From the IMG/VR virus record IMGVR_UViG_3300044984_001322, positions 1-56,878 of that record: DNA of 56,878 nt; one strand, 5' to 3'. The stretch is from a virus (Duplodnaviria > Caudoviricetes). The stretch's first letter is position 1. The number at the start of each line of letters is the position of its first letter. The notes beneath the pieces were generated by a model. It was not told the DNA's origin. It did not search any database and was given only the letters and a program-made list of their open reading frames with translations. Both the position numbers and the translations under genes were made by a program. Below are positions 1-11,256 of the stretch, piece by piece.

Positions 1-96
1 CAGTCATTTGCTTTTGTCCTTATCTCCAGCCCACGGGCATCCAGTGCAGCGCGGAAGTCATCAGCATCGGGCATAAACCCGCCAAAATCTTTCAGC
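1..96. repeat. Terminal direct repeat (circular assembly overlap), identical to 56783-56878
   Basis: Bases 1-96 match 56783-56878 exactly; a minus-strand ORF needs the circular join to complete its stop codon. Confidence 0.95.
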
Positions 97-230
97 ACTT
101 TCGTCAGCGGGTCATTCTCAGCGCGTTCTTCCGCCAAGTCGTGTTCCAGCATCATCACCTTGGCTTCCAATGCCAGCAACGCAGCGCGGACAGGGCCAGA
201 CGTTCCTTCAGCCAGTTCTTTAATGTTCAT
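1..230 (-). CDS. Hypothetical protein (76 aa, MNIKELAEG...GLEIRTKAND); stop codon spans the circular junction
   Basis: Manual translation; ATG overlaps the upstream TGA; TGA is completed by base 56782; next ORF (56580-56789) overlaps its end. Confidence 0.7.
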   Translation of the reverse strand, partial: MNIKELAEGTSGPVRAALLALEAKVMMLEHDLAEERAENDPLTKVLKDFGGFMPDADDFRAALDARGLEIRTKAND

Positions 231-373
231 GTGCTTTGATCCCGCCGACTCACACGCTTGCGGACAGGGGATAGAGATTGGCGGCGCTGTGCCTCTGCGA
301 AGGTGAGACCCTCAGCATTCCGAAGGGGCCATACATCGTCTCTTGATCTGCGTGTTTGTGCTTGATTGTTCAT
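227..373 (-). CDS. Small hypothetical protein (48 aa, MNNQAQTRRSRDDVWPLRNAEGLTFAEAQ...)
   Basis: Manual translation; GGAGG RBS upstream; ATGA coupling to next gene. Confidence 0.55.
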   Translation of the reverse strand: MNNQAQTRRSRDDVWPLRNAEGLTFAEAQRRQSLSPVRKRVSRRDQST

Positions 374-528
374 TTTTGTACCCTCCAAATTAAAATTTAA
401 TGCTTGATAAAACGTAGGCTATGTTCCTGCATTGTTCCAGCTTTTTATGCCTAAAAAATAAGGGAAAAGCTGTGATTTTGGGCAGTCTGTATAGGTGCCA
501 CTGCTTGGTGAACATACGAAGAACAGAA

Positions 529-562
529 TGTGCGGATTTTGTGCAGGAATTGTGCAGGAATT
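529..562. repeat. Putative integrase arm-type sites (TGTGCGGATTT TGTGCAGGAAT TGTGCAGGAAT)
   Basis: Tandem 11-bp repeats; a related set lies at 721-757 on the other side of the tRNA-derived core. Confidence 0.65.
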
Positions 563-637
563 GATGTTTGTTCCCGCCCTGTTCCGCTTTAGGGCATAGC
601 GCAGAATCTGCGTATGTTGTTGAAATGTATGGAGTTT

Positions 638-690
638 TGGCGCGCCCTACAGGAGTCGAACCTGTGGCCTCAAGATTAGAAGTCTCGCGC
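638..690 (-). other. attP core: 3' portion of tRNA-Arg(UCU)
   Basis: Minus strand GCGCGAGACTTCTAATCTTGAGGCCACAGGTTCGACTCCTGTAGGGCGCGCCA: anticodon arm with TCT, T-arm GGTTCGACTCC, CCA end; 5' half absent; directly downstream of integrase. Confidence 0.9.
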
Positions 691-706
691 AAACCCGCAC
701 AAATGC

Positions 707-1741
707 TCATGTCTCACCCATTTTGTGCGAGTTTTGTGCAGGAATATTCTCAGGAACTATTCTTCCGGCGCGATCAAAAACAGTCATGACATCCTCTGCC
801 TCAACGTGGGCGTAGCGCATGGTGGTCTTGATATCCGCATGGCCTAACGCACGCTGCAATTCTGGAAGGCTTGCACCTTTCATGAGGGCGTGAGTAGCAA
901 ACGTGTGGCGTAGATCGTGGAAGTGGAAATCGTGCATGTCGGCTCTTCTTAGGGCTGCTTCCCAAAGCTTTCTAAAGTTGACCACATCGAACACCCGATC
1001 CTTTGGTTCGCCTACTGGCAAAGTCGATAGCGCCGTCATCAGTGGTGCTGCTATTCGCGTGACCAGTGGCTTGCGACCCTTGGTGCGTGGGATGATGATC
1101 GTCCGCCCGACCATGTCTACTTGATACCATTCCAACTTAAGGACGTTCGCCTTACGAAGGCCAAGACTAACCGCCGCCACAATGATAGGCCGGATGCGTG
1201 GATTGGCTGCTTCTAATAGAACGCCAAGATCAGGTTCACTTGCATAGCGCACCCTTCCCTCATTCTCTTGGACGCGAATGGTTGTCCAATCGATTGATGG
1301 GATGTCGGCTTTGTAGACACGATTAGCGTACCGCATGGCGGCGCGAAGCATGGAGAAATGCCGATTGATAGTGACCAGTGAGATGTCCTTCTTACTGGAG
1401 CTACGAAGCTGCGCGGAAAAGGAAACAAGACTGCGCTCGTTGACCGACATGATGCTTGTGTTCTTTCCCATGATATCCATGAACCTTCGAAAGTAACGGT
1501 CAGTGGCATCACCGCTGTCTAGGTTCCTGCCCTTGTCTTTCCAGTAAACATCTATGACATCACCCAAGCGCCACTGTGCGCCTAGCGGCTCCGCCTTCGC
1601 GCTTTCCTCTGCGATAATCCGAAGCGCAGCCTCTTTAGCTGCGCGTGGCTTGGTTTCTCTGGTACTTTGCCGAAGCAATCGACCATTCACGGTTTCCGTA
1701 AACCAGAGATAAGGTGACCCTTCGCGGGTATAGATTTTCAT
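707..1741 (-). CDS. int: Tyrosine integrase (N-terminal arm-binding region plus catalytic domain)
   Basis: LGLRKANV, HFHDLRHTFAT, LGHADIKTTMRY motifs (R-HxxR-H-Y); adjacent attP. Confidence 0.95.
   Translation of the reverse strand: MKIYTREGSPYLWFTETVNGRLLRQSTRETKPRAAKEAALRIIAEESAKAEPLGAQWRLGDVIDVYWKDKGRNLDSGDATDRYFRRFMDIMGKNTSIMSVNERSLVSFSAQLRSSSKKDISLVTINRHFSMLRAAMRYANRVYKADIPSIDWTTIRVQENEGRVRYASEPDLGVLLEAANPRIRPIIVAAVSLGLRKANVLKLEWYQVDMVGRTIIIPRTKGRKPLVTRIAAPLMTALSTLPVGEPKDRVFDVVNFRKLWEAALRRADMHDFHFHDLRHTFATHALMKGASLPELQRALGHADIKTTMRYAHVEAEDVMTVFDRAGRIVPENIPAQNSHKMGET
721..757. repeat. Putative integrase arm-type sites (TTTTGTGCGAG TTTTGTGCAGGAAT ATTCTCAGGAAC), inside the int 3' end
   Basis: Same TTGTGCAGGAAT motif as 529-562. 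Confidence 0.6.
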
Positions 1742-1774
1742 TGTGCGCTGCTTTCCATAGAGCGTTAGGCATCT

Positions 1775-2074
1775 TTACGCCGCCTTAGCGACTGCATAAT
1801 CCCACTCTTCGTCGGAGACAACTACCCCACGGCCAATGATCTCCGGCTCACGCTCCCACTCAGCTTCGAACTCTAGCTGCTCCAGTGTTCCGGCTGGTTC
1901 GTCATCGAACCGCACGATCTCTGCCAACAGTTCCATGTACAGATCATGATCGATCTGTGGGCGGTCACGAAAGTGCGCAGCGTACCCATTGGCAGCGCGG
2001 TTAACGTTCCAATTGTAGATTGCATCGTTGATGGCGCGAAGGCCAGCGATAGCTGCTTCCATTTCTTTTCTCAT
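1775..2074 (-). CDS. Hypothetical early protein
   Basis: 99-aa ORF, ATGA overlap with upstream gene, GGAG RBS. Confidence 0.75.
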   Translation of the reverse strand: MRKEMEAAIAGLRAINDAIYNWNVNRAANGYAAHFRDRPQIDHDLYMELLAEIVRFDDEPAGTLEQLEFEAEWEREPEIIGRGVVVSDEEWDYAVAKAA

Positions 2075-2259
2075 GTCCGGTTCTCCTTTATGATGCCGCG
2101 CTCAATCAAATCAGCGGCGGTGCGTCCGAAGAAGCCTTGCAACTCATAGGCAAGACCAGTGTCATGCAAGTGCTGCCACGCTTCGACGGTGGTGTCATAG
2201 TCAGCATCCTCAGAGCCTTCAGCAATCGAAACGGCTCTGTAGTTATCCATTTCAGCCAT
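2071..2259 (-). CDS. Small phage protein (AWQHLHDTGLAYELQGFFGRTA)
   Basis: RBS AAGGAG; resembles a widespread small phage protein family (from memory). Confidence 0.8.
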   Translation of the reverse strand: MAEMDNYRAVSIAEGSEDADYDTTVEAWQHLHDTGLAYELQGFFGRTAADLIERGIIKENRT

Positions 2260-2272
2260 TCACTTTCTCCTT

Positions 2273-2323
2273 CTGATTTCATCTGCGCGGCGGAGTCGAA
2301 ACCCCGCCGTCTAGTGATGTCAG
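2273..2323 (-). ncRNA. Conserved junction hairpin, copy A (unassigned RNA motif)
   Basis: CTGA CA TCA CT AGA CGGCGGGG TTTCGA CTCCGCCG CGC AG A TGA AA TCAG; includes the stop codon of the upstream gene. Confidence 0.75.
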
Positions 2324-2625
2324 GCGAACACCCATTCCGTTGGGTATTGGCGGTGGTTTTTAAGCTGCCACTTTTGCAGCACTGGTTCGCCATCATCATC
2401 CTCATCGACTGCGATGTAGGCGACAGTCTTCAGCACCCGTGCGTAGCGGATGCGGTCAGCGACATAGACGATGTGCGGACAGTCAGGGGCGAAGTCGACG
2501 CCTTCGTCTGGCCGGATGGCGTACTCAAACGTGTGGCCGTAGTCGGCCTCAACGAAGCTGCCCAAGATCAGCGGCAGCACTGCGCCGTTGCGAATGTCGG
2601 TGTTGGTATGCGGTGCAAAGCCCAT
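2320..2625 (-). CDS. Hypothetical phage protein (ARVLKTVAYIAVDED motif)
   Basis: 101-aa ORF with AAGGAG RBS. Confidence 0.8.
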   Translation of the reverse strand: MGFAPHTNTDIRNGAVLPLILGSFVEADYGHTFEYAIRPDEGVDFAPDCPHIVYVADRIRYARVLKTVAYIAVDEDDDGEPVLQKWQLKNHRQYPTEWVFA

Positions 2626-2661
2626 GCGCTTTCTCCTTGGAGGCTTGATTGCCTGTCTGCT

Positions 2662-2690
2662 CCACTATCTTATGTATTCTTATGCGTCAA
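2662..2690 (-). promoter_or_regulatory. Putative sigma70-type leftward promoter TTGACG-N17-TAGTGG
   Basis: Near-consensus -35, 17-bp spacer, AT-rich context ahead of the 2625 gene; -10 weak. Confidence 0.5.
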
Positions 2691-2789
2691 CATGCAAAGC
2701 ACATATAATGTTATGTACCGTGACGTAAATGATTAACACAGAACAAAATGCGAACAAAGTTATTTTGCTATCGCGCCGGAGGACGCAAA

Positions 2790-3080
2790 ATGATAAGGCA
2801 TGACAACGCAAACTTAGAAAGAACCGCCGTGGATTTACCAGCCATCGATCACCGCCTTGGGCGGATCGAAGACGAGATGAAATCAATAGCGGAAGCTATG
2901 CGCTTGCTGTCGCGGGTGGACGAACGTCTGCACCGCCATCGCGAAGACATCGACGACCACGAAGACCGTCTAAGGTTGCTTGAAAAGACAGCGACGAACC
3001 AGAGCGGTGCGCTCAAGATGGTAGAGCGTGGAATCTGGTTAGTGGTGACGGTGGGCTTGGCCCTAGTCCAGTTCGCCTAA
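2790..3080 (+). CDS. Coiled-coil protein with C-terminal TM helix (XhlA/holin-like)
   Basis: GGAGG RBS; heptad-rich region then GIWLVVTVGLALVQFA. Confidence 0.7.
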   Translation: MIRHDNANLERTAVDLPAIDHRLGRIEDEMKSIAEAMRLLSRVDERLHRHREDIDDHEDRLRLLEKTATNQSGALKMVERGIWLVVTVGLALVQFA

Positions 3081-3100
3081 AAAATCGGCGGGAAAACCAA

Positions 3101-3133
3101 AGGGGCCGCGATCCACACCGCAGCCCCTCTGTT
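3101..3133. terminator. Hairpin between convergent genes, likely bidirectional terminator
   Basis: AGGGGCCGCG-loop-CGCAGCCCCT; T-rich tail on the minus strand. Confidence 0.6.
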
Positions 3134-3135
3134 AA

Positions 3136-3477
3136 TCATTCTGGATAGAAGCACAGATCGAAGCTGTAGTAGGGTTCAGCGAAGACGCCAACCTGACACA
3201 GCGCATCACTGGCAACGATAGCCCACTCAAAGGGGCCAGCCTCATACGACACGCGCCAGCCGCCACGTTCCTTTCGAGCAAAGCATTCAATGTCAGGGCT
3301 GTGTCCGGTGTCGCTTGCACATTGGCGCAGTACCTCAAGCACAGCGTGAGCGCGTCCCTTGGCTGACTTTCGTGTGACCGCTGCCTTTGCTATCCTCTCA
3401 GATAGATCAGATGCGCCATAGCCGTAGTAGTGGCCTTCATTCTTTCGTGCGTAATCAAGATTGATATCCATAATCAT
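3136..3477 (-). CDS. Hypothetical early protein
   Basis: ORF with AGGAG RBS immediately after hammerhead HH1. Confidence 0.8.
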   Translation of the reverse strand: MIMDINLDYARKNEGHYYGYGASDLSERIAKAAVTRKSAKGRAHAVLEVLRQCASDTGHSPDIECFARKERGGWRVSYEAGPFEWAIVASDALCQVGVFAEPYYSFDLCFYPE

Positions 3478-3490
3478 TCTCCTGTGGTCT

Positions 3491-3543
3491 GTCTCATCAG
3501 TGGCGGTAAACCAACCCCGCCAGACGCCCGAAGGCGTTTCGAC
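3491..3543 (-). ncRNA. Type II hammerhead ribozyme HH1
   Basis: GTC GAAA CGCC TTCG GGCG TC^ TGGCGG [GGTTGGTTTA] CCGCCA CTGATGA GAC; full core; loop TGGTTT can pair with 3' tail AGACCA; predicted cut 3523/3522. Confidence 0.93.
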
Positions 3544-3881
3544 TATTTTACTTTCTCTTGAGCCTCACACAGTGCGAGTGATGCTAGGTGCAGCTTGTGC
3601 GGCAGGGCCAGCTTGTCCCATGCGTCTTGGATGGCGACTGAGTACTCAGTGTAGTTGCGTGGTTCAGTCCGCTGCGCCGGAGCAGTCTGCTCTTGGGGCG
3701 GGGCGGAAACAACCTGAGACACCGAACCACCTACATGATGACGGTTAAGGAATGCCAGTAGACCAGCCTTATCAACTGGAACCTCTGCCTCTTTCCATGT
3801 GGTGGCGTTATCCCTAGCATGCGCCTTCGCGTCAGCCTGAGTGCCTGTCCAGACGCCGTCCGGTGATTGATACAGCTTCAT
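3543..3881 (-). CDS. Hypothetical early protein
   Basis: 112-aa ORF; TAG stop overlaps HH1 stem II. Confidence 0.8.
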   Translation of the reverse strand: MKLYQSPDGVWTGTQADAKAHARDNATTWKEAEVPVDKAGLLAFLNRHHVGGSVSQVVSAPPQEQTAPAQRTEPRNYTEYSVAIQDAWDKLALPHKLHLASLALCEAQEKVK

Positions 3882-4135
3882 GCCGCCTCTCCCCTCTGGA
3901 TTAAGAGCGCCTCTTCAAACAACTCTTCGCGCAATTCATGTAAGACACTAATGCGGTCATGTTGGACTTGGCGGTCAATCATGCACTGCCTCAAATCGCT
4001 TGGGTAATCACGGCCATTTGGCATCGCTTCCCTCAACAGTGTGATGGCATCGTGCAATGCGTCTACGGCTGCACGGCGTGGCTTGATCAGGTCATCCCTG
4101 CTTGAGCCGTTTATATTGATAACGGGCTTGATCAT
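3878..4135 (-). CDS. Hypothetical early protein (PVINING S...PNGRDY)
   Basis: ATGA-coupled ORF with RBS. Confidence 0.8.
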   Translation of the reverse strand: MIKPVININGSSRDDLIKPRRAAVDALHDAITLLREAMPNGRDYPSDLRQCMIDRQVQHDRISVLHELREELFEEALLIQRGEAA

Positions 4136-4329
4136 GCTGCCTCTCCTTCTGCTTTAGAGACTGCATCCCATGCGGCATCCAATGCGGCTCTGAAACTGTC
4201 CGTTCGATACTCTGAGGGCATGTCTTCGTCAGCCTCACAAGCCAGCCATTTCAGGACTTCCAGCAAGTCAGGTGCTGCCGCCATTAGGTTCGCATCTATG
4301 TTGATGCGGGTGTCTATATTCTGTGTCAT
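4132..4329 (-). CDS. Small phage protein with ANLMAAAPDLLE motif
   Basis: Motif common in small phage early proteins; AAGGAAG RBS. Confidence 0.8.
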   Translation of the reverse strand: MTQNIDTRINIDANLMAAAPDLLEVLKWLACEADEDMPSEYRTDSFRAALDAAWDAVSKAEGEAA

Positions 4330-4352
4330 TTCGCTTCCTTTCGCTTTGACCT

Positions 4353-4405
4353 ATCTCATCAGTGACGGCTGGTCAGAACCGTCAGACCCCCGAAGGGGTT
4401 TCGAC
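4353..4405 (-). ncRNA. Type II hammerhead ribozyme HH2
   Basis: GTC GAAA CCCC TTCG GGGG TC^ TGACGG [TTCTGACCAG] CCGTCA CTGATGA GAT; loop TGACC pairs with tail GGTCA; predicted cut 4385/4384. Confidence 0.93.
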
Positions 4406-4407
4406 TA

Positions 4408-4444
4408 GCGGCGGAGCGTGAACCCCGCCGTCCGTTGGTACTAG
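4408..4444 (-). ncRNA. Truncated junction hairpin fused to HH2
   Basis: GGA CGGCGGGG TTCACG CTCCGCCG C is identical to the top of the 6697-6747 copy; lower 3' strand replaced by the hammerhead. Confidence 0.65.
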
Positions 4445-4639
4445 TTAAGAAAAGTCGGATGAGAGGTTGCGGATAAAGTCGAACGCAAACTTGCGCTCGT
4501 TAAAAGACAGCGCCTCATTGTCACCGCGCTCCCGATAGCCGTTGGTCGCCCATTCGGCATCGCCGCCAGTGCGGACTTCACTATAGTCAAGGTCGCCAGC
4601 AAGCGCGGCGGCATATATGTAATTTTCACGGTCAGTCAT
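4445..4639 (-). CDS. Hypothetical early protein
   Basis: 64-aa ORF, AAGGT RBS, fits operon spacing. Confidence 0.6.
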   Translation of the reverse strand: MTDRENYIYAAALAGDLDYSEVRTGGDAEWATNGYRERGDNEALSFNERKFAFDFIRNLSSDFS

Positions 4640-4649
4640 GACATACCTT

Positions 4650-5057
4650 TCAAACGTTCAGTGTGTCGGTTTGGAGGACAAAAACGATCTCAGTGTCATT
4701 GTCGCAATAAGTGCGGCCACCCAAAAGCTGCGGCCTTCCGGCGTAGTAGTTGCCACAGCAATCATGTTCATGCTGGCAGTATTCAGCTTCGATCCAGTAG
4801 TTCATCGCCTCCTTCACCTGTGCCTCAGTGGCATCGCGTGGTACTTTCCAAGCCGTGACCCTGTGGACGGTTTCCCCGTCGATCTCGACGCGAAGGGGGA
4901 GAGAGGCAGAGACCTGATCAAAGCTGATCATCTCATCCTCTTCCTCTTCATCAGCCGGACAGTCTTGCTGCCAGTGGTGGCTTCCGAAGCAACGGTCACA
5001 GAAGTGATCGTCGGCGCTCTCAGTGTGCGGTTCATACGTGTGGTGATTTTCTCTCAT
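4650..5057 (-). CDS. Hypothetical Cys/His-rich acidic protein (CxxC, CQHEHDCCG)
   Basis: AAGGAG RBS right after HH3. Confidence 0.8.
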   Translation of the reverse strand: MRENHHTYEPHTESADDHFCDRCFGSHHWQQDCPADEEEEDEMISFDQVSASLPLRVEIDGETVHRVTAWKVPRDATEAQVKEAMNYWIEAEYCQHEHDCCGNYYAGRPQLLGGRTYCDNDTEIVFVLQTDTLNV

Positions 5058-5078
5058 GTCAGTCTCCTTAAATGACCT

Positions 5079-5134
5079 GTCTCATCAGTAGCTGGGGGTC
5101 AGCCCAAGCTAGACGGCCCGAAGGCCGTTTCGAC
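5079..5134 (-). ncRNA. Type II hammerhead ribozyme HH3
   Basis: GTC GAAA CGGCC TTCG GGCCG TC^ TAGCT [TGGGCTGACCCCC] AGCTA CTGATGA GAC; loop TGACC pairs with tail GGTCA; predicted cut 5112/5111. Confidence 0.93.
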
Positions 5135-5517
5135 TATGCGGTTGTCTCCATCTTATCGATCATTGGCTCCAGTCGATCATAGACTGATTGGCAGTACTCG
5201 TTGTCGGTGTAGTCTCCGATAACGTCATAGCCATCATTGCCGTAGGTCAGTTGGAACCAACCCAGCCGCTTGTTGTCCAAGTCCCTGACCACCAGTTCAT
5301 CACCGTCAGTCGTGAACAATGCATGGCGGATCAGTTTTTCGTCGCGGGAACTTTTGACCGTCCACTCTTCGCTGTCAAAGACCGACAGCGCGTGACCATC
5401 GGCCAACACCTGTTTGACCAGCGCAAAACATATGCGGCGCTCGATCATGATGCGCTTGGCAAGTTTACGCTCGCCGCGCTCAATGGCCTGATCTGCGTAC
5501 TTTTTGAATTCATCCAT
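5134..5517 (-). CDS. Hypothetical early protein (YGNDGYDVIGDY)
   Basis: ORF with GGAG RBS; stop overlaps HH3. Confidence 0.8.
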   Translation of the reverse strand: MDEFKKYADQAIERGERKLAKRIMIERRICFALVKQVLADGHALSVFDSEEWTVKSSRDEKLIRHALFTTDGDELVVRDLDNKRLGWFQLTYGNDGYDVIGDYTDNEYCQSVYDRLEPMIDKMETTA

Positions 5518-5528
5518 AACTGCTCTCC

Positions 5529-5702
5529 TCAAAAGATTGGTTCGATCCGCTCACATGCGGGAAAGTCGCTCTCATACTTAGCGAACATTGGGTGACTTGC
5601 GCCCTTGCAGCCGTAGCCAATAAGGCGGGGCTGGATGACGATAAGGCTGAAGCCGATCAGAATGATCAGACCAGCACAGAAGGTCTTAACTGCATCTTTC
5701 AT
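5529..5702 (-). CDS. Small membrane protein
   Basis: GGAG RBS; N-terminal hydrophobic helix. Confidence 0.6.
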   Translation of the reverse strand: MKDAVKTFCAGLIILIGFSLIVIQPRLIGYGCKGASHPMFAKYESDFPACERIEPIF

Positions 5703-5734
5703 GTCAATCTCCATAAGTGACATTTCGTGGTTGG

Positions 5735-5783
5735 CTGACGCCATCCTCGCCGTGGAGCGAACCCCACGGTCTGGTAGTGTCAG
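5735..5783 (-). ncRNA. Conserved junction hairpin, copy B
   Basis: CTGA CA CTA CC AGA CCGTGGGG TTCG CTCCACGG CGA GG A TGG CG TCAG, 1 nt after the ardC stop. Confidence 0.75.
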
Positions 5784-5784
5784 G

Positions 5785-6666
5785 TCATGCAGCCATCGCC
5801 TGTGGCTGCGCAGCGTTGACCAGATAGTCGACCGCCTTTGTCGCGGCGCTGGCGGCTGACACGAACTCGCGCTTGTGGTCAGACAGCTTTTTCATCCATC
5901 CGTTGAGGTACTTCGCATGATCTGCGCGGGGTGATGCGCTGATGTCCAACGTGGCGCACAGGAACGCCGCACCTAGCTCTGCGACCAGTTCCTCACGGGC
6001 GTAGTCTTCGCTGCCGAAGCCGTTTGCCAGATCACGATCCAAGCGGCTCTTGTGGCCTGTCCAGTGAACCAGTTCGTGGGCCAGTGTGCTGTAAAAGCAC
6101 TCTGAGGCGGTGGACGTTGGTGTCGCCTCAAACACGCCCTTGTTTGGCATGTGGACGCGATCCGTCGATGGGCTGTAGTACGCCTTGCCGACATCTGAAT
6201 AAGTGACGGCGGCAGGGATGTGGCGGAAAAAGTCTTCGGCGGTCACGATCTCAGTCGCACCATCATCATTGGTGGCTGGTGACTGTATCGCCTCTGCAAT
6301 GTCGCCATCCACTTGATCCGCATTGAACACAAAGTACGTGCGCAGCATTGGGATGCTGACATCGTTGCCAGCCTCATCCTTCTTTTTGAAGAACTGCCAG
6401 AACAGTATCTGCGTGGACTTTTCGCCCTTCCGGACTTGGCACTTGCGCTCTGCCCACTGCTTGTATGTACCCCATGTCGCTGAGGTGTGACCGCTCCATC
6501 CCAACAGAATGATGTTGATGCCGCGATACGCTTTTTTGCTGGCGATGTTGCGGGGCGATCCGCCCTGACCCTTGCGGGAGAACGGGTTGATCCAATCAGA
6601 CCCGTGGGTCTCCATCATTTCCAGAACACGCTCTGTGACCTGTGCGTATATGTCGATTTTAGCCAT
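5785..6666 (-). CDS. ardC: ArdC-family antirestriction/ssDNA-binding protein with zincin-like metallopeptidase domain
   Basis: YRGINIILL, WGTYKQW, VFNADQ, HELVHWTGH, YAREELVAELGAAFL motifs. Confidence 0.92.
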   Translation of the reverse strand: MAKIDIYAQVTERVLEMMETHGSDWINPFSRKGQGGSPRNIASKKAYRGINIILLGWSGHTSATWGTYKQWAERKCQVRKGEKSTQILFWQFFKKKDEAGNDVSIPMLRTYFVFNADQVDGDIAEAIQSPATNDDGATEIVTAEDFFRHIPAAVTYSDVGKAYYSPSTDRVHMPNKGVFEATPTSTASECFYSTLAHELVHWTGHKSRLDRDLANGFGSEDYAREELVAELGAAFLCATLDISASPRADHAKYLNGWMKKLSDHKREFVSAASAATKAVDYLVNAAQPQAMAA

Positions 6667-6696
6667 TTCGTTTCCTTTCGTTTTGACTGTTGTTGG

Positions 6697-6747
6697 CTGA
6701 CGCCATTCTCGCGGCGGAGCGTGAACCCCGCCGTCCGATAGTGTCAG
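6697..6747 (-). ncRNA. Conserved junction hairpin, copy C
   Basis: CTGA CA CTA TC GGA CGGCGGGG TTCACG CTCCGCCG CGA GA A TGG CG TCAG, directly after the TAA stop. Confidence 0.75.
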
Positions 6748-7134
6748 TTAGTGGTGGCGCTCGTTAACGAGATCACACTCCCAGCTTTCGATGATCCGCT
6801 TGCGCCATGCGGCTGGCTTTTCGTCCGTCACGTTCGTCGTGAGACCAATGTGCTGGCGGATGTCTTCAAGCGTGTAGGGATCGTCAACGAACTTGCCGCT
6901 GTCGCCCTTCTTGATCCGCACAGCGCCGCGAAGGCGTTCGAACAGTGCGACCCGCTTGTAGAATTCTTTGTAGTTGCTTTCGGTGATCCGGCCAAAGCCC
7001 ACCACCATCGTGGTGAAGATCAGCAATTCAGTGGACTGCGTCAGGCGGCGCTGAGGCTCACCGTTCTCTTCATAGTGATAGAAGCAGACCGTGTTGCTGT
7101 CCGCGATGTTCGAAACGTTCCAATTCAGTGACAT
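6748..7134 (-). CDS. Hypothetical early protein (MSLNWNV...HIGLTTNV)
   Basis: GGAAGGA RBS before ATG 7134. Confidence 0.8.
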   Translation of the reverse strand: MSLNWNVSNIADSNTVCFYHYEENGEPQRRLTQSTELLIFTTMVVGFGRITESNYKEFYKRVALFERLRGAVRIKKGDSGKFVDDPYTLEDIRQHIGLTTNVTDEKPAAWRKRIIESWECDLVNERHH

Positions 7135-7157
7135 GTAGTTTTCCTTCCATTGTGGCA

Positions 7158-7210
7158 CTAGCGCCATAAGTGCCGCGCAGTGGTGAGGTGCGCGGCTGAT
7201 ATGGGGTTAG
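7158..7210 (-). ncRNA. Divergent junction hairpin
   Basis: CTAA CC CCA TA TCA GCCGCGCA loop TGCGCGGC ACT TA TGG CG CTAG; same size and position as the family, different internal loop. Confidence 0.45.
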
Positions 7211-7335
7211 TATCCGCCCGTCAGCGTGATGATGTGAAAGCCCCGCGAGACCTCAGAGGTGAAGGTCAGGCCGCGCTGGACAAGACCAGCAACGGTGTCG
7301 AGAAACTCTTCGTGGGTGGTGCAGTGGATGGTCAT
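7207..7335 (-). CDS. Small protein, 42 aa (MTIHCTTHEEFLDTVAGLVQRGLTF...TLTGGY), absent from the ORF track
   Basis: Manual translation; GGAGG RBS; fills the operon gap. Confidence 0.7.
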   Translation of the reverse strand: MTIHCTTHEEFLDTVAGLVQRGLTFTSEVSRGFHIITLTGGY

Positions 7336-7338
7336 GTC

Positions 7339-7536
7339 TTATGCCCTCCCTTCGCAAGCGGCGTCGAAGTCATCTTGGTAGATTTTCTCCAGTACTGCTT
7401 CGACCAGCCCCAGAGGCACGCTTGTCTCTTGGCTGATGTCCGGCAGGTAGCCGCCTTCGCAGATCATCGTCATGATCGTTGAGATGGTTGCGTTGTCCAT
7501 CAACGACAGGCGGTGGTACATTTGTTCGTCGGTCAT
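7339..7536 (-). CDS. Hypothetical early protein, possibly HTH-like
   Basis: GGAAGGA RBS before ATG 7536. Confidence 0.65.
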   Translation of the reverse strand: MTDEQMYHRLSLMDNATISTIMTMICEGGYLPDISQETSVPLGLVEAVLEKIYQDDFDAACEGRA

Positions 7537-7559
7537 TTCGTGTTCCTTCCATAGTGGCC

Positions 7560-7610
7560 CTGATGCCATCCTCGCAGCGGCTATGGTGGGCCGCTGTCTG
7601 GTGGGGTCAG
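7560..7610 (-). ncRNA. Conserved junction hairpin, copy D
   Basis: CTGA CC CCA CC AGA CAGCGGC CCACCATA GCCGCTG CGA GG A TGG CA TCAG; includes the upstream TGA. Confidence 0.75.
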
Positions 7611-7915
7611 TAATATCCGGCTCGTTCCTCCTGTTCGCGCTGCCACTCTGTGCCGCACTCTCCCAGCCGCTCTTCCAAGCTTTCGGGAAGCTCTGCCTCC
7701 AACCAATGATCCAGATCAACGTGACCGGCGATCATCACCTTGGCGGCGAAGCACTGAGCGTCGAAGCGGTGGCGGAAAGCTTTGGGGTGAACGAACTCTC
7801 CGGCCCACGTTGATGTGGTCACGAAGTAATCGAAGCGGGTGTTGATGCCGTCTTCGCAACGCTCTTCGAAGTACGGGCCTTCGGAGACCCCAACGCCGAT
7901 AACTAAACTTTTCAT
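7607..7915 (-). CDS. First gene of early operon, hypothetical
   Basis: GGAAGGA RBS before ATG 7915. Confidence 0.75.
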   Translation of the reverse strand: MKSLVIGVGVSEGPYFEERCEDGINTRFDYFVTTSTWAGEFVHPKAFRHRFDAQCFAAKVMIAGHVDLDHWLEAELPESLEERLGECGTEWQREQEERAGYY

Positions 7916-8010
7916 GCTGATTTCCTTCCATACTAAAATCACCAGACGGCAGCGGACTGCGGTGTGATGATCCTAGCGGAGACCGAAGCCCCCGTAGGTA
8001 TCAAGCGTTC

Positions 8011-8026
8011 ACAATGTCAAAGATCG
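8011..8026 (-). promoter_or_regulatory. boxA-like antitermination element (CGATCTTTGACATTGT)
   Basis: Resembles rrn/lambda boxA (CGCTCTTT-type) in the leader ~40 nt after the promoter; followed by hairpin 7968-8003. Confidence 0.55.
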
Positions 8027-8065
8027 GGACGGTGGGAGCCTCACGGCGGCGGTGTCTTGGCCTCT

Positions 8066-8094
8066 TCAATACGACCTGTTTTTATATGTGTCAA
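8066..8094 (-). promoter_or_regulatory. Early leftward promoter TTGACA-N17-TATTGA
   Basis: Perfect -35, 17-bp spacer, partial -10. Confidence 0.65.
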
Positions 8095-8299
8095 ACATAA
8101 AAATGCATGTGGCTATAACGTAGGCTGTGCGCGGCTTTAGGTTCTTATACGTTATGTACCGTGATGCACCGAAAGCAGTCTGCCCAAAAAATCGGCGGGA
8201 AAAACCGGAACACCGCGATCCCTTCCCTTCATGTAGAGTAGAGACAATAGACAGTAGGGGATGTATAGAGACCAGACACAAGTAATCGGAATCTATACT

Positions 8300-8758
8300 A
8301 TGAAGAAAGACTACACACCCGAAGCAAAGGGCAAGATCATGGCAAGTGAAATGCCAGACTATATTACGCCGAAGCAGCAAGCGTTCATCCATGCCTACGC
8401 CGCCAATGGGAACAACGGGAGACAGGCAGCGATCTCAGCCGGATATGCACCAGCAAGTGCCCATGTGACCGCCAGCACGATGCTGAAGATGGACAAGATC
8501 AGGAAGCGGATAGAGCCTACACAAGACAAGCAGACAGAGAGGCTGGGGCTTGATGCTGATTGGATCGTCTCCCGTCTGATGAAGGAAGCAGAGAGCGGCG
8601 ACAACTCTGAGGCTGCTCGCGTTCGCGCACTGGAACTGTTGGGCAAAGTCGAAGGCATCTTTGCACCTGACAAGAAACAGATCGAGACCATCAATGGCGG
8701 CGACTTCCTAGCCAATCTGGACATGTCCGACGAAGACGATCCCGACACCCTGCAATAA
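8300..8758 (+). CDS. terS: Terminase small subunit
   Basis: TPKQQAF...NGRQAAISAGY...ALELLGK motifs; start may be 8261. Confidence 0.9.
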   Translation: MKKDYTPEAKGKIMASEMPDYITPKQQAFIHAYAANGNNGRQAAISAGYAPASAHVTASTMLKMDKIRKRIEPTQDKQTERLGLDADWIVSRLMKEAESGDNSEAARVRALELLGKVEGIFAPDKKQIETINGGDFLANLDMSDEDDPDTLQ

Positions 8759-9339
8759 CCACCCCATGCGAGCACGACCCTGACAAGGTTGTGCTTGTTA
8801 TCCCTTGGTTTTTTTCTTGGGCTTTTTTTCTTGGCCTTTTTCTGCGGGCCTTGGCGCGTGGGCTGTGCTGTACGGTGTGCGCACCTGTGCGTGTGCATGC
8901 TGCCTCATCGTGTGCATGCGTATGTGTGCAGGGGGAGGGGGGGGACGTGGTGCAGCGCACCCGCCATCGCCCGTGCGGTTCCATAAGGCCCATGATAAGC
9001 TGTAGCCCTAGAATTGGCACCCTAACCTTTTGCCCCTTCTCTAATAAATGGGGTGGTAAACTTTGAGTCCAAAAATAAAAAAAATATAAAAATCATTTTT
9101 GATGTCTTTTACATAAGACTTATGCGGAAAATTATTCAGTATTGCATCAAGTAAAAAAACAAGTAATCGAACTATTCATGCAAGAAAAAATCATTGGCAT
9201 TTGCCTTCGCTCAAAAAGATTTGAAATTCATTTCTGTTTATCTGTAAACGTATTTGCTGTAGGGCTTGAGTTCTACGACAAGTCTTTTGTTGTTCGTTTT
9301 GGACCGGCTTTCGTTTCTTTATCTTGGGGATGAACAAAC

Positions 9340-9816
9340 ATGATGTGGATGAAGACTGCTCATGAGTCTGTCGGCCTTAAGGAGGTCGTAGGGCCAAAGC
9401 ACAACACGAAGATTCAGGCGTGGCTCTCTAAGCTTGGCGCTTGGTGGAATGACGATGAGACGCCGTGGTGCGGTACATTCGTTGCTCACTGTCTGCGTGA
9501 GGCAGGTCATCCCATTCCCAAGCATTGGTATCGCGCTTTGGGGTGGAAGGAGTACGGTTCGAACCTTCGCCCCACCCATGTATGTGAAGGCGCTATTCTT
9601 GTGTTTTCTCGCGAAGGCGGAGGTCACGTCGGCTTCTATGTAAGCGAAGACCGTTTCTACTACCGTGTGTTGGGCGGCAACCAGAAGAACAGCGTCAACA
9701 TCATGCGTATTGCCAAGAGCCGCTGTGTAGCCATTCGCTGGCCTACAGGCGTACCCGTAACCGGCGTTCCTATCCACGTTGCGACAAACGCTCCTGTCTC
9801 AGGGAATGAGGCGTGA
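9340..9816 (+). CDS. Endolysin, TIGR02594/NlpC-P60-like cysteine peptidase
   Basis: DETPWCGTFV, GGGHVGF, VLGGNQ motifs. Confidence 0.9.
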   Translation: MMWMKTAHESVGLKEVVGPKHNTKIQAWLSKLGAWWNDDETPWCGTFVAHCLREAGHPIPKHWYRALGWKEYGSNLRPTHVCEGAILVFSREGGGHVGFYVSEDRFYYRVLGGNQKNSVNIMRIAKSRCVAIRWPTGVPVTGVPIHVATNAPVSGNEA

Positions 9817-10067
9817 GCTTTAAAGAGCGTCTGCTTGAGATTGAGGCCATTGCCCTTTGCGTGATGCGTAAGTGGTGGAGGCCGGTCACCTGCTTATGGA
9901 TTGCAGGAACGATGGCGGTGCATGGCGTTATCTCTCCCCTCTATCTTCTATTCACAAAAGGTGAGGCTCCAAGCGACATGACTGGACTGTCATTGCTTGT
10001 GACGGCGGTAGCTGCAGCGTTTGCTGTGCGTGAGTGGGGTAAGATTAAAGGAGCGGGAAATGATTGA
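9813..10067 (+). CDS. Holin-like membrane protein
   Basis: WRP followed by two hydrophobic helices; in lysis cassette. Confidence 0.7.
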   Translation: MSFKERLLEIEAIALCVMRKWWRPVTCLWIAGTMAVHGVISPLYLLFTKGEAPSDMTGLSLLVTAVAAAFAVREWGKIKGAGND

Positions 10068-10410
10068 GGCATTGAAGGGTCTTTGGGTTTTCCGCCGATT
10101 TTTTGGGTACGCCGCGCTTCTGGTTGTTATTGGGTGGTTGTGGATGTCTAACTCCGGTCTGGAGAAGGACGTGCTTAAGGCAAAGATCGCCAACACAGAG
10201 TTGATGGCGGTGCTGAATAAGCAAAATGCGCAGGTCTCTCAATTTGAGAATAACGCCAAGCAGCGCAAGGTTGTCGCAGTGAAGGCTATGGCCGCAGCAA
10301 AGGTAGTCGATAAGGCTCACGTCACTAAAGCAAACCGTATTCTTATTACCGTTCCTAAGAATAGCGACGAGTGTGTGGCTGCTCTTGAGTTGTTACGGGA
10401 GTATCAATGA
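10060..10410 (+). CDS. i-spanin (Rz-like)
   Basis: N-terminal TM, coiled coil, C-terminal Cys. Confidence 0.7.
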   Translation: MIEALKGLWVFRRFFGYAALLVVIGWLWMSNSGLEKDVLKAKIANTELMAVLNKQNAQVSQFENNAKQRKVVAVKAMAAAKVVDKAHVTKANRILITVPKNSDECVAALELLREYQ

Positions 10411-10655
10411 TGCGTGTTTGGTTTTTTCCGCCGATTTTTTTGGCGCTGACTGCATGCTCTACTAAAACAGTAGAAGTAAAAATACCTATTCCTGTTCCAT
10501 GTATTACTGAAACTATACCAGAACCTACTTATCCTATTGTTAAAGAAGATGCTGGCATATTTGAAAGAGTAAAGGTATTGCTTGCCGAGCGTGAGTTGCG
10601 CAGGGGTTATGAAATTAAATTACGGGCAGCACTGTCTGCCTGCGGAGAAATCTAA
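10407..10655 (+). CDS. o-spanin (Rz1-like lipoprotein)
   Basis: Lipobox LTAC, Pro-rich segment. Confidence 0.75.
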   Translation: MMRVWFFPPIFLALTACSTKTVEVKIPIPVPCITETIPEPTYPIVKEDAGIFERVKVLLAERELRRGYEIKLRAALSACGEI

Positions 10656-10775
10656 ATGAAGAAGATGAGCAAGAAGATGATGGCCGAAATGCCAATGGGT
10701 AAAGGCATGCCGTTCGGCAAGGAAAAGGGCAAAGAAATGCCAAAGTGCAAGATGCCCATGAAAAAGAAGAAGTAG
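10656..10775 (+). CDS. Small Lys/Met-rich basic peptide (MKKMSKKMMAEMPMGKGM...KKKK)
   Basis: Manual translation, 39 aa; GGAG RBS; ATG directly after upstream TAA. Confidence 0.6.
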   Translation: MKKMSKKMMAEMPMGKGMPFGKEKGKEMPKCKMPMKKKK

Positions 10776-10791
10776 GTAAGAAAGTGGGTAG

Positions 10792-11256
10792 GTGCAGAAA
10801 CTCTGCACCAACTGCGGCCAGTTGAAGGCCTTATCAGAGTACCGCCTGAACTCTATGACAGGGCGGTACTCTACCCGCTGCGCATCATGTCCAGCCTTAA
10901 AAGCTCTTCGAAAATACAACTGCCTTAAGACGTACCTCCAGTACCGATATTACGACGCAACAAGGAAGTCTGTGGGCGGTCAACTACCGACAGCCTGTTT
11001 TACGCTTGAGTATTTGCTTGATCTTCTTGAGAAACAAGACGGCAAATGCGCTGTGACCGGCAAGGTGTTTACCTTCAGCGGCAATTACCTTGGCACGAAT
11101 ATCAGCATTGACCGGATCGACTCCAACAAGCCGTACTCCGCAGAAAACGTAAGGTTAATCTGTCTCGCAGTTAATTATATGAAGCGCCGCATGAACGACA
11201 ACGAGCTTGTCGATTGGTGTCTAGATATCGTCAAAGGTGCAGGTTCGTGGAAATAG
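10792..11256 (+). CDS. HNH-type endonuclease with N-terminal zinc finger
   Basis: CTNC/CASC, QDGKCAVTG, SIDRIDSNKPY..NVRLIC..VNYMK. Confidence 0.8.
   Translation: MQKLCTNCGQLKALSEYRLNSMTGRYSTRCASCPALKALRKYNCLKTYLQYRYYDATRKSVGGQLPTACFTLEYLLDLLEKQDGKCAVTGKVFTFSGNYLGTNISIDRIDSNKPYSAENVRLICLAVNYMKRRMNDNELVDWCLDIVKGAGSWK

Follow-up and report, generated by a model that had tools for sequence, protein, structure and literature searches.

A covarying RNA hairpin family at early gene junctions of Sphingomonadaceae phages, in the slot also filled by type II hammerheads

The DNA analysed here is a stretch of 56,878 nucleotides from a tailed phage (the window). Some of the junctions between its small early genes carry type II hammerheads, while others carry an RNA hairpin of about 50 nt that the preliminary description could not assign to a family. 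The locus raises the question of what this hairpin is and what it does at junctions of a kind where a ribozyme is otherwise found.

Hairpin copies in the window

An IUPAC consensus pattern of the hairpin has exactly four matches in the window, all on the minus (gene-sense) strand (Table 1), while 0.00 matches are expected by chance (100 dinucleotide shuffles of the window) and the reversed pattern has none. These are the four copies announced in the preliminary description, which had also placed each of them at a stop codon; this codon lies inside the motif in copies 1 and 4 and is the ORF end 1 nt and 0 nt upstream of it in copies 2 and 3, respectively. The four full copies fold with -22.0 to -26.4 kcal/mol (z scores of -3.4 to -4.6 relative to shuffles). 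The conserved 8-mers of the hairpin occur in the window only within motif copies, which leaves no trans-acting antisense partner there.

Table 1. Hairpins and hammerheads of the early region (window coordinates)
Feature	Position	Strand	Score	Upstream stop codon	Downstream gene
Hairpin copy 1	2273-2323	-	64.0 bits	UGA of ORF 2320-2625 at motif positions 2-4	Shine-Dalgarno directly after motif; start of ORF 2071-2259 13 nt downstream
Type II hammerhead	3483-3544	-	40.7 bits	5' end overlaps UAG of ORF 3543-3881	
Type II hammerhead, core intact	4345-4406	-	31.9 bits (gathering score 37)		
Truncated hairpin copy	4409-4444	-	25 bits over model positions 11-40	Adjoins UAA of ORF 4445-4639	
Type II hammerhead	5071-5135	-	39.8 bits	5' end overlaps UAG of ORF 5134-5532	
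Hairpin copy 2	5735-5783	-	65.2 bits	Stop of ArdC-like gene 5785-6666, 1 nt upstream of motif	Small gene; start ~32 nt past motif
Hairpin copy 3	6697-6747	-	69.6 bits	Adjoins UAA of ORF 6748-7167 (0 nt upstream)	ArdC-like gene
Class B hairpin	7158-7210	-		UAA at positions 2-4	
Hairpin copy 4	7560-7610	-	65.3 bits	UGA of ORF 7607-7942 at motif positions 2-4	Start 23 nt past motif

Two related elements had been overlooked. The truncated copy stands directly before a hammerhead: its 5' strand and P3 (the upper stem) are retained, and the hammerhead begins where its 3' strand would be. The class B hairpin has the same outer architecture as the full copies but P2 is a perfect 5-bp helix that lacks the bulged A, the letters of its 3x3 loop are different and non-conserved, and it is not detected by the covariance model of the main hairpin. 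Class B keeps the slot without the conserved loop, so that it is either a decayed copy or a sign that the loop is not needed.

Fold and sequence conservation of the hairpin family

In the hairpin, P1 (4 bp) is followed by a 2x2 spacer and by P2 (5 bp), which contains either a bulged A or a 1x2 loop; above P2 come the conserved 3x3 internal loop (RGA/CGM) and P3, which varies and is 6-13 bp long. Among 89 model hits (80 distinct sequences), 88.7% of the paired cells are complementary versus 72.3% in shuffles, a value reached by 0 of 500 shuffles, and double changes are found in 16 of the 19 pairs. An independent MAFFT alignment (26 sequences) submitted to RNAalifold reproduces these helices, and 13 of 16 pairs have compensatory changes. 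The compensatory changes first read from the window copies (CU/AG, CC/GG, UC/GA, and UCA/UGA versus CYA/UGG) are all present, and the covariation on which the preliminary description made its case depend extends to the homologues. The element is a real covarying RNA hairpin family.

Conservation is not limited to pairing. Loop nucleotides G13, A14, C-15 and G-14 are invariant, as are the C-G pairs that flank both the loop and the conserved bulged A. The unpaired nucleotides do not vary and helix spacing is constant, with no indels across the 80 distinct sequences. The RGA/CGM signature is not a search artefact: of the 33 structured hits of a scan in which the loop was left free (NNN/NNN), 32 still had RGA/CG[AC]. 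The lower stem is irregular: a 2x2 mismatch is present in about half of the sequences, in addition to the bulge. In the predicted fold the 3' strand also sequesters a Shine-Dalgarno-like GAGG. A pseudoknot between the P3 loop and downstream sequence was considered and rejected, the best complementarity to the following 35 nt (mean 2.97) being at the level of shuffled loops (2.96) and mismatched partners (2.92).

The hairpin had been claimed to form G-U pairs only on the transcribed strand. This does not hold for the element as a whole: a frequent C5/A mismatch of the sense strand is a G-U pair on the opposite strand, and the antisense strand of the copies folds about as well (-22.7 to -31.8 kcal/mol). 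It does hold as a bias in P3, where 38 G-U cells versus 4 A-C cells are counted family-wide on the sense strand. The downstream ORF lies on the strand of the motif in 113 of 113 instances. On account of this excess and of the fixed gene orientation, the reading of the hairpin as a sense-strand RNA stands.

Position between stop and start codons

The upstream stop codon coincides with motif positions 2-4 in 101 of 115 cases, precedes the motif by 3-9 nt in 10 and is absent in 4. Variants with a UAA stop have a compensating U in the 3' strand. In 113 of 113 instances the distance from the motif to the start of the next gene is 2-34 nt, and the Shine-Dalgarno of this gene begins 0-20 nt after the helix. 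An intrinsic terminator is rejected: there is no U tail, a Shine-Dalgarno and a start codon come next, and no terminator-like site is called on the minus strand at any of the copies, in agreement with the preliminary description. SECIS, readthrough and translational bypass are likewise rejected. P3 varies in length, no frame is conserved and the codons preceding the stop vary; in copy 1, an in-frame UAG is found two codons past the UGA. The genes downstream of the motif have their own Shine-Dalgarno and start codon, which argues against readthrough.

This overlap with translation signals can be read as the mark of an uncleaved structural insulator or translational (de)coupler. A terminating ribosome would open P1 and P2, and refolding would place the next Shine-Dalgarno at the helix foot or block Rho and exonucleases between cistrons. 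The stop codon inside P1, the UAA variants with their matching U, the proximity of the Shine-Dalgarno, the GAGG putatively sequestered in the 3' strand and the persistence in the slot of a class B hairpin without the conserved loop are all favorable to it. However, a generic hairpin does not need invariant loop letters, and an AUG within the motif shares its frame with the downstream start codon in ~12 of 29 cases, about what chance would give. Moreover, a hammerhead, which separates cistrons and cannot couple them, replaces the hairpin at the same junctions. A purely uncleaved device is judged unlikely.

Shared junctions with type II hammerheads

Hammerheads are described as flanking single genes in prophages, with a proposed role in cutting long phage transcripts into gene-length mRNAs (PMC3088659). 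In the loci studied here they occupy the position of the hairpin: the stop codon lies 4-12 nt before CGAAAC in 35 of 37 hammerheads and, in 36 of 37, the core is followed by a start codon at a distance of 9-28 nt. Both elements are found between a stop codon and a Shine-Dalgarno, which bears out the earlier claim of a common slot. The association is also genomic, with 16 hammerheads in 8 of the 34 motif-bearing loci (267 kb) versus none in 77 control loci (681 kb), and hammerhead and motif are on the same strand in 54 of 54 cases.

Exchange is seen at orthologous junctions. Between the same two genes, one phage locus (L122) carries the hairpin and two others (L094 and L112) a hammerhead. In L007 and L010, a hammerhead stands before the homologue of the gene downstream of copy 2, and in L007 one also follows the homologue of the gene upstream of copy 3. 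The end of the gene upstream of the window hammerhead at 5071-5135 is followed by a class B hairpin in L008, L087 and L115. Protein clusters that mix hairpin and hammerhead number 3 of 15 on the downstream side and 3 of 16 on the upstream side. The proposal that the hairpin is a functional alternative to the hammerheads is strengthened by these junctions. Note that interchangeability means only that both elements are tolerated in the slot; the same function does not follow from it.

Related phages are mosaics in the order of their cassettes, and the breakpoints fall at the elements; the shared boundaries could result in part from recombination at repeated sequences. Mosaicism is also a point in favor of a DNA-level element, namely a folded single-strand recombination site of the attC type or a hotspot that mobilises gene cassettes. 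An integrase gene is present at 707-1741; it matches only the general phage integrase family. Integron attC sites are imperfect hairpins that follow the stop codon of a cassette and in which a conserved outer box, an unpaired spacer and a conserved inner box with an extrahelical base lead up to a variable tip; the hairpin, directly after a stop, resembles them in this layout. Its conserved letters differ, however, and the attC core sequences are probably absent from the motif. In addition, the 38:4 excess of G-U over A-C in P3 is that of RNA pairing on the sense strand, the same boundaries are marked by hammerheads, which are RNA devices and exchange with the hairpin, and many prophages have a single copy. 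A role at the DNA level thus appears highly improbable.

Distribution and neighbouring genes

The covariance model and pattern scans identified ~119 distinct hairpin instances in viral, metagenomic and Sphingobium/Sphingomonas contigs. The carriers are temperate phages of Sphingomonadaceae and related uncultured phages. BLAST of a 51-nt copy against GenBank phages gave only chance matches in GC-rich coding sequence, and megablast of region 2000-9000 found no relative. When 151 genomes around one of Sphingobium were scanned with the model, 39 of the thousands of first-look candidates being scored per genome, only the starting genome was returned, a result from which little can be read on taxonomic spread. 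Matches to a 44-nt pattern in genome contigs, many of them from Rhodobacteraceae/Paracoccaceae, were treated as chance, none having a model hit at E<=0.01 except locus L035, whose hit is weak (22 bits); the match in L016 is a chance hit. No description of this hairpin was found in literature searches.

Some loci have several copies per operon, while in many prophages a single copy precedes unrelated genes. The flanking genes are diverse small phage genes. These data bear on the hairpin as an operator, to which a host or phage RNA-binding protein with sequence specificity would bind and so co-regulate several early cassettes. The conserved purine-rich 3x3 loop and the bulged A, both bordered by invariant C-G pairs, would suit such a protein, as would the repetition within operons. 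Against it, single copies stand before unrelated genes, an operator has no obvious reason to be exchanged with a ribozyme, and no protein family encoded within 6 kb of the hairpin is common to more than 13 of 85 non-redundant loci. An operator is accordingly held to be improbable. The lack of a common neighbour points to a host factor or to autonomy of the RNA.

Proposed function

The hairpin is read as an intercistronic mRNA-processing element, equivalent to type II hammerheads, that bounds small early-gene cassettes (probability of about 0.55). A cut in the polycistronic transcript would fall within the hairpin, the likeliest site being the conserved 3x3 loop, at the shoulder of P3. It would leave the downstream message with a terminal hairpin in front, after which come ~15 nt and the Shine-Dalgarno. 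Such a product would have the layout of the hammerhead cleavage product, in which stem I is followed by the CUGAUGAG strand and the Shine-Dalgarno. Opening of P1 and P2 by the ribosome that terminates at the stop codon within P1 would then set the two halves free.

The catalyst could tentatively be a host structure-specific endonuclease, with RNase III as prime candidate; this is rated somewhat more probable than self-cleavage. The irregular lower stem and the strictness of loop letters and spacing, for which RNase III has no known need, count against this enzyme.

The same cut could be made by the RNA itself. The hairpin would then be a new class of small unbranched self-cleaving ribozyme, used interchangeably with hammerheads to divide early transcripts into single-cassette mRNAs, and its 3x3 loop (G13, A14, C-15, G-14) and conserved GGAUG strand would form an active site that requires no protein. 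The tight association with hammerheads and their replacement at orthologous junctions, the invariant unpaired nucleotides with fixed helix spacing and no indels, and the lack of both a common protein partner and an Rfam match are in line with this. Its architecture is not: all known classes of small ribozyme contain a junction, docking loops or a pseudoknot, while this element is a single unbranched hairpin of ~50 nt, with no junction and no pseudoknot found with downstream sequence, and its class B relative lacks the conserved loop. Most ribozyme-associated motifs tested by Weinberg et al. in 2015 reportedly did not cleave. Autonomous cleavage is doubtful on these grounds. As a whole, the element probably cuts or insulates the message, and may be a ribozyme of a new kind.

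It has been known since 2011 that prophage genes can be separated by hammerheads, whose role is still an inference. With another RNA element, unrelated to them, at the same junctions, the slot itself becomes an object of study: something at each boundary between cassettes has to cut the message, insulate it or protect it. Were the hairpin self-cleaving, it would represent a new ribozyme class with the simplest architecture. Were it cut by a host nuclease, phages would treat ribozymes and nuclease sites as interchangeable parts, a natural counterpart of the ribozyme and nuclease "insulators" of synthetic biology. The compact size (50 nt), the ~119 natural variants and the culturable Sphingobium/Sphingomonas hosts make direct tests possible.

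Comparison with known systems

In phage T7, RNase III processing hairpins lie between early genes. A site of this type has about two turns of mostly double-stranded RNA and an internal loop; the hairpin studied here spans 19-27 bp-equivalents and its 3x3 loop is ~11 steps above the base. Both are irregular hairpins of about 20 bp-equivalents, have an internal loop and are found between consecutive early cistrons of a phage operon, and cleavage of the hairpin would, like that of the T7 sites, leave hairpin-ended mRNAs. In contrast to the T7 sites, to which it has no sequence relationship, the hairpin has a more irregular lower stem, its hosts are Alphaproteobacteria, and the letters of its loop show much stronger conservation than the known requirements of RNase III would explain.

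The kink-turn, defined by a three-nucleotide bulge followed by tandem G-A/A-G pairs (PMC8191799), is rejected, since the loop is a symmetric 3x3 and tandem G-A pairing needs one-nucleotide bulges on both strands. A cmscan search of Rfam 15 at E<=10 returned nothing for 6670-6775 and, within 1-14000, nothing that overlaps the motif copies; a scan at gathering thresholds gave no family for the motif either. The comparison with Rfam that was called for, RAGATH motifs included, therefore gave no match: none of the Rfam 15 ribozymes (twister, twister-sister, pistol, hatchet, hairpin, RAGATH-n) corresponds to the hairpin at this threshold. RAGATH families in Rfam include RF02686 and RF03064 (PMC13085918). 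RAGATH motifs, twister-sister, pistol and hatchet are defined, like the hairpin, by association with hammerheads in phage-like regions (PMC4604425, PMC13085918), and the same logic led to the discovery of the last three (PMC4604425). The hairpin differs from RAGATH-type families as they are represented in Rfam 15, but may still correspond to a motif of the 2015 study that did not enter Rfam.

The hammerhead is built from the blocks CUGAnGA, GAAA and the cleavage-site block, joined by stems I-III (PMC10085705). The hairpin is not a hammerhead in any permutation: there is no hit at E<=10 and the core blocks are absent, GAAA being missing from copies 2-4 and CUGA being followed by Y N N and not by nGA. 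Compared with type II hammerheads, it has neither the three-way junction nor the CUGAnGA or GAAA core, and its self-cleavage is only hypothetical. With the hammerhead arrays that flank genes in prophages (RF02276; Perreault et al. 2011, PMC3088659), the hairpin shares genomes, strand, slot and orthologous junctions.

Structure of the hairpin and its strand of origin

The consensus of the RNA hairpin of about 50 nt, as worded in the preliminary description, has exactly four matches in the window, at the positions reported there and all on the minus strand (copies 1 to 4 in the table). Shuffled sequence gives 0.00 matches and the reversed consensus matches nowhere in the window. Each copy adopts the fold originally described (-22.0 to -26.4 kcal/mol, z-scores -3.4 to -4.6). 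The opposite strand of the copies folds about equally (-22.7 to -31.8 kcal/mol) and the window alone therefore gives no strand assignment. Across the family, P3 (the apical helix, whose sequence is free) has 38 G-U cells versus 4 A-C cells, many of the former coming from related sequences, and P2 (the middle helix) has 9 versus 2; the C5/A mismatch of the spacer (39 cells) follows the trend opposite to this G-U excess. Among the matches listed, an ORF follows on the same strand in 113 of the 113 instances with enough flank. The G-U versus A-C counts and the same-strand downstream ORFs favour a sense-strand RNA element.

Pattern scans of IMG/VR retrieved 9 and then 13 stretches, L016 among them being a chance match (L-numbers identify loci from viral, metagenomic and bacterial-genome contigs). 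Scans of genome contigs and metagenomes gave 64 and at least 85 stretches, respectively, the latter with 80 loci among the matches listed. A covariance model built from 15 sequences found more, further diverged copies in the same loci, 8 strong matches in the 64 genome stretches (Sphingobium, Sphingomonas and one other bacterium) and 68 matches in the 79 metagenome loci searched, L092 being omitted for its identity to L007 in length and match positions. Strains whose records carry the motif include Sphingobium jiangsuense DSM 26189, Sphingobium sp. YR768, S. xenophagum NBRC 107872 and Sphingomonas laterariae LNB2. A last scan with the 3x3 loop between P2 and P3 unconstrained returned at least 119 stretches, and the family amounts to at least 119 distinct instance-plus-context strings.

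The proposed covariation is borne out by 89 model matches (80 distinct), in which 88.7% of cells are paired versus 72.3% in shuffles and both-sided changes occur in 16 of 19 pairs; displacing the partner by 1–3 columns lowers pairing to 27–48%. As this alignment is fitted to the model, 26 diverse copies and their flanks were also aligned with plain MAFFT; RNAalifold then yielded the same helices, with compensatory changes in 13 of 16 pairs. The basal helix P1 is CUGA/UCAG, with variants CUAA/CUAG and one GUGA/CCAC, and above it lies a 2x2 spacer with Watson-Crick pairing in roughly half of its cells. P2 consists of three pairs, a bulged A (for which sequences with C at position 9 have a C/AU 1x2 loop) and two nearly invariant C-G pairs. 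The 3x3 internal loop leads to P3, whose 6–13 bp are capped by a free loop. No variation occurs among the 80 sequences at G13, A14, C-15, G-14 and U-9, most of these letters being forced by the search patterns. When the loop is written NNN/NNN, RGA/CG[AC] is found in 32 of the 33 unique new matches with a real P3 among the matches listed; the single exception there is L197, with CAA/AAC, and the remaining 53 listed matches are stemless and attributed to chance.

The invariant loop letters and rigid spacing are the features that argue for self-cleavage by a new ribozyme class, together with the presence of hammerheads nearby, an association that uncovered earlier ribozyme classes (PMC4604425). 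Such self-cleavage is nevertheless unlikely for an unbranched hairpin in which no pseudoknot was detected.

Exchange with hammerhead ribozymes at gene junctions

Among the matches listed, the stop codon at motif positions 2–4 ends an ORF of at least 40 codons in 101 of the 115 instances that have 150 nt or more of sequence upstream; it lies 3–9 nt upstream of the motif in 10 and is absent in 4. The in-motif stop is UGA; where it is UAA instead, the 3' strand has a compensating U. The next ORF starts 2–34 nt past the motif (median 14, among the matches listed). For the listed hammerheads, which are type II self-cleaving ribozymes, the stop is 4–12 nt before CGAAAC in 35 of 37 and the start 9–28 nt past the core in 36 of 37. 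This like placement agrees with the earlier proposal that hairpins and hammerheads fill the same slot. The other junctions of the window operon are overlapping stop/start pairs, so that the elements mark off groups of one, two or three genes.

Related phages carry the same cassettes in shuffled order. One and the same gene pair is separated by a hairpin in L122 and by a hammerhead in L094 and L112. In L007 and L010 it is a hammerhead that precedes the gene downstream of window copy 2, and in L007 one follows the gene upstream of copy 3; in both cases the switch coincides exactly with the stop codon. Of the protein clusters with at least two members, 3 of the 15 formed by downstream proteins and 3 of the 16 formed by upstream ones have both hairpin and hammerhead neighbours. 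Among the matches listed of the unconstrained-loop scan, 16 hammerheads occur in 8 of the 34 true-motif loci and none in the 77 chance-match loci; of the listed hammerheads sharing a locus with the motif, 54 of 54 are on its strand. Rfam hammerheads above the gathering score were found in L010, L082, L094, L106, L115, L125, L145 and L156. In each of the three window hammerheads, as read from the sequence, the stem I loop can pair with the tail that follows stem II to give the type II pseudoknot. Its letters are UGACC/GGUCA in two of them and covary in the third; UGAC/GUCA is common to hairpin P1.

The hairpin is thus, on positional and evolutionary grounds, firmly identified as a sense-strand RNA element interchangeable with a self-cleaving ribozyme at phage cistron boundaries. 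A non-cleaving role (as translational decoupler, insulator or protein operator) is a possible reading, as is a recombination site acting at the DNA level; both fit the hammerhead exchange less well.

The slot has other occupants. The class B hairpin, a diverged form, keeps the P1, spacer and P3 layout with a perfect 5-bp P2 devoid of bulge, while its 3x3 loop letters differ among the L008, L087 and L115 copies. In these three loci it stands after the gene end that in the window precedes a hammerhead (5071–5135). Hairpin, hammerhead and class B being all found at junctions, the slot has at least three kinds of occupants. Note that a half copy of the motif (5' strand and P3) runs directly into the 5' end of one window hammerhead and that similar fusions are found in L008 and L087, such as a deletion or a recombination joining hairpin and hammerhead would produce.

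Genome context

The window is a complete viral record of 56,878 bp with direct terminal repeats. An SU10-type portal, a primase-helicase and a ribonucleotide reductase are among its gene products. The tRNA-like segment adjoining the integrase gene probably serves as attachment core, with a tRNA gene as the integration target. The hairpins lie among small genes that by their position would be "early" and that form a leftward (minus-strand) block ending at the integrase. Its interruption by a plus-strand ORF places copy 1 in a transcription unit separate from that of copies 2–4. A strongly folding 123-nt gap in the block has no Rfam match and could contain a promoter, another RNA or a hairpin of terminator type.

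The L015 prophage adjoins an alphaproteobacterial tmRNA gene; one of its two motif copies is on the minus and the other on the plus strand, each sense to its own diverging genes. Several Sphingobium-type prophages (L005, L028, L049, L064, L076) carry a single copy before homologous small genes, whose N-termini look RusA-like by eye.

Features of the window and of related loci
Feature	Coordinates	Strand	Remarks
Hairpin copy 1	2273-2323	minus	
Hairpin copy 2	5735-5783	minus	
Hairpin copy 3	6697-6747	minus	
Hairpin copy 4	7560-7610	minus	
Type II hammerhead	3483-3544	minus	Rfam 40.7 bits
Type II hammerhead	4345-4406	minus	Rfam 31.9 bits, below gathering score; core intact
Type II hammerhead	5071-5135	minus	Rfam 39.8 bits
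Half motif fused to hammerhead 4345-4406	4409-4444	minus	
Similar fusions	L008:289-318, L087:3833-3862		
Class B hairpin	7158-7210	minus	UAA stop at positions 2-4
Class B hairpins in other loci	L008:1223-1281, L087:2870-2928, L115:4757-4834		
tRNA-like segment	641-698	minus	30.9 bits, D-arm missing
Integrase	707-1741		
Block interruption	2626-3135		contains ORF 2748-3080
ORF	2748-3080	plus	AT-rich promoter-like region before, hairpin and T run after
ArdC-like anti-restriction protein	5785-6666		member of the leftward block
Intergenic gap	7943-8065	minus	between ORFs 8066-8392 and 7607-7942; folds at -40 kcal/mol for the stretch
1,578-aa ORF	20538-25274		no Pfam match
3,291-aa ORF	35158-45033	plus	sole Pfam match LPD38 (large polyvalent protein domain), near C-terminus
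tmRNA gene	L015:1304-1680		
Motif copies	L015:4000-4046, L015:6234-6295	minus, plus	

Proposed function and relation to known RNAs

Hammerheads were proposed to cut long transcripts into cassette-length mRNAs (PMC3088659). Since the hairpin is interchangeable with them, the same function would be the most economical proposal for it. After a cut at the P3 shoulder the downstream mRNA would start with a terminal hairpin, separated from the Shine-Dalgarno sequence by about 15 single-stranded nt, a layout identical to that of the hammerhead cleavage product. The stop codon lies in P1 (in the stem II 5' strand of hammerheads), which suggests that the terminating ribosome may open the closing helix. 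Cutting by a host enzyme, for instance RNase III, is a tentative possibility with which the overall size and central internal loop are consistent; that no phage protein is common to more than 13 of 85 loci and that class B hairpins are retained at these junctions also point to a host cutter.

The hairpins have no Rfam match at E<=10. Rfam includes RAGATH families (RF02686 and RF03064, named in PMC13085918), and the comparison suggested in the preliminary description is thus negative. BLAST detected no GenBank phage with the hairpin and no published description of it was found; an unpublished RAGATH candidate with this consensus is possible. The hairpin is rated as a new RNA family of an already known functional kind; that it is a ribozyme, and as such categorically new, is doubtful. 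The strand 3' of P3, read letter by letter, loosely resembles the hammerhead CUGAnGA block minus one U, and the 3x3 loop is, also loosely, like the loop at which the substrate helix of another ribozyme is cleaved; no model match supports either resemblance. As read from their sequences, the hammerheads found here share the loop-I-to-3'-tail pseudoknot with the type II ribozymes of PMC3088659.
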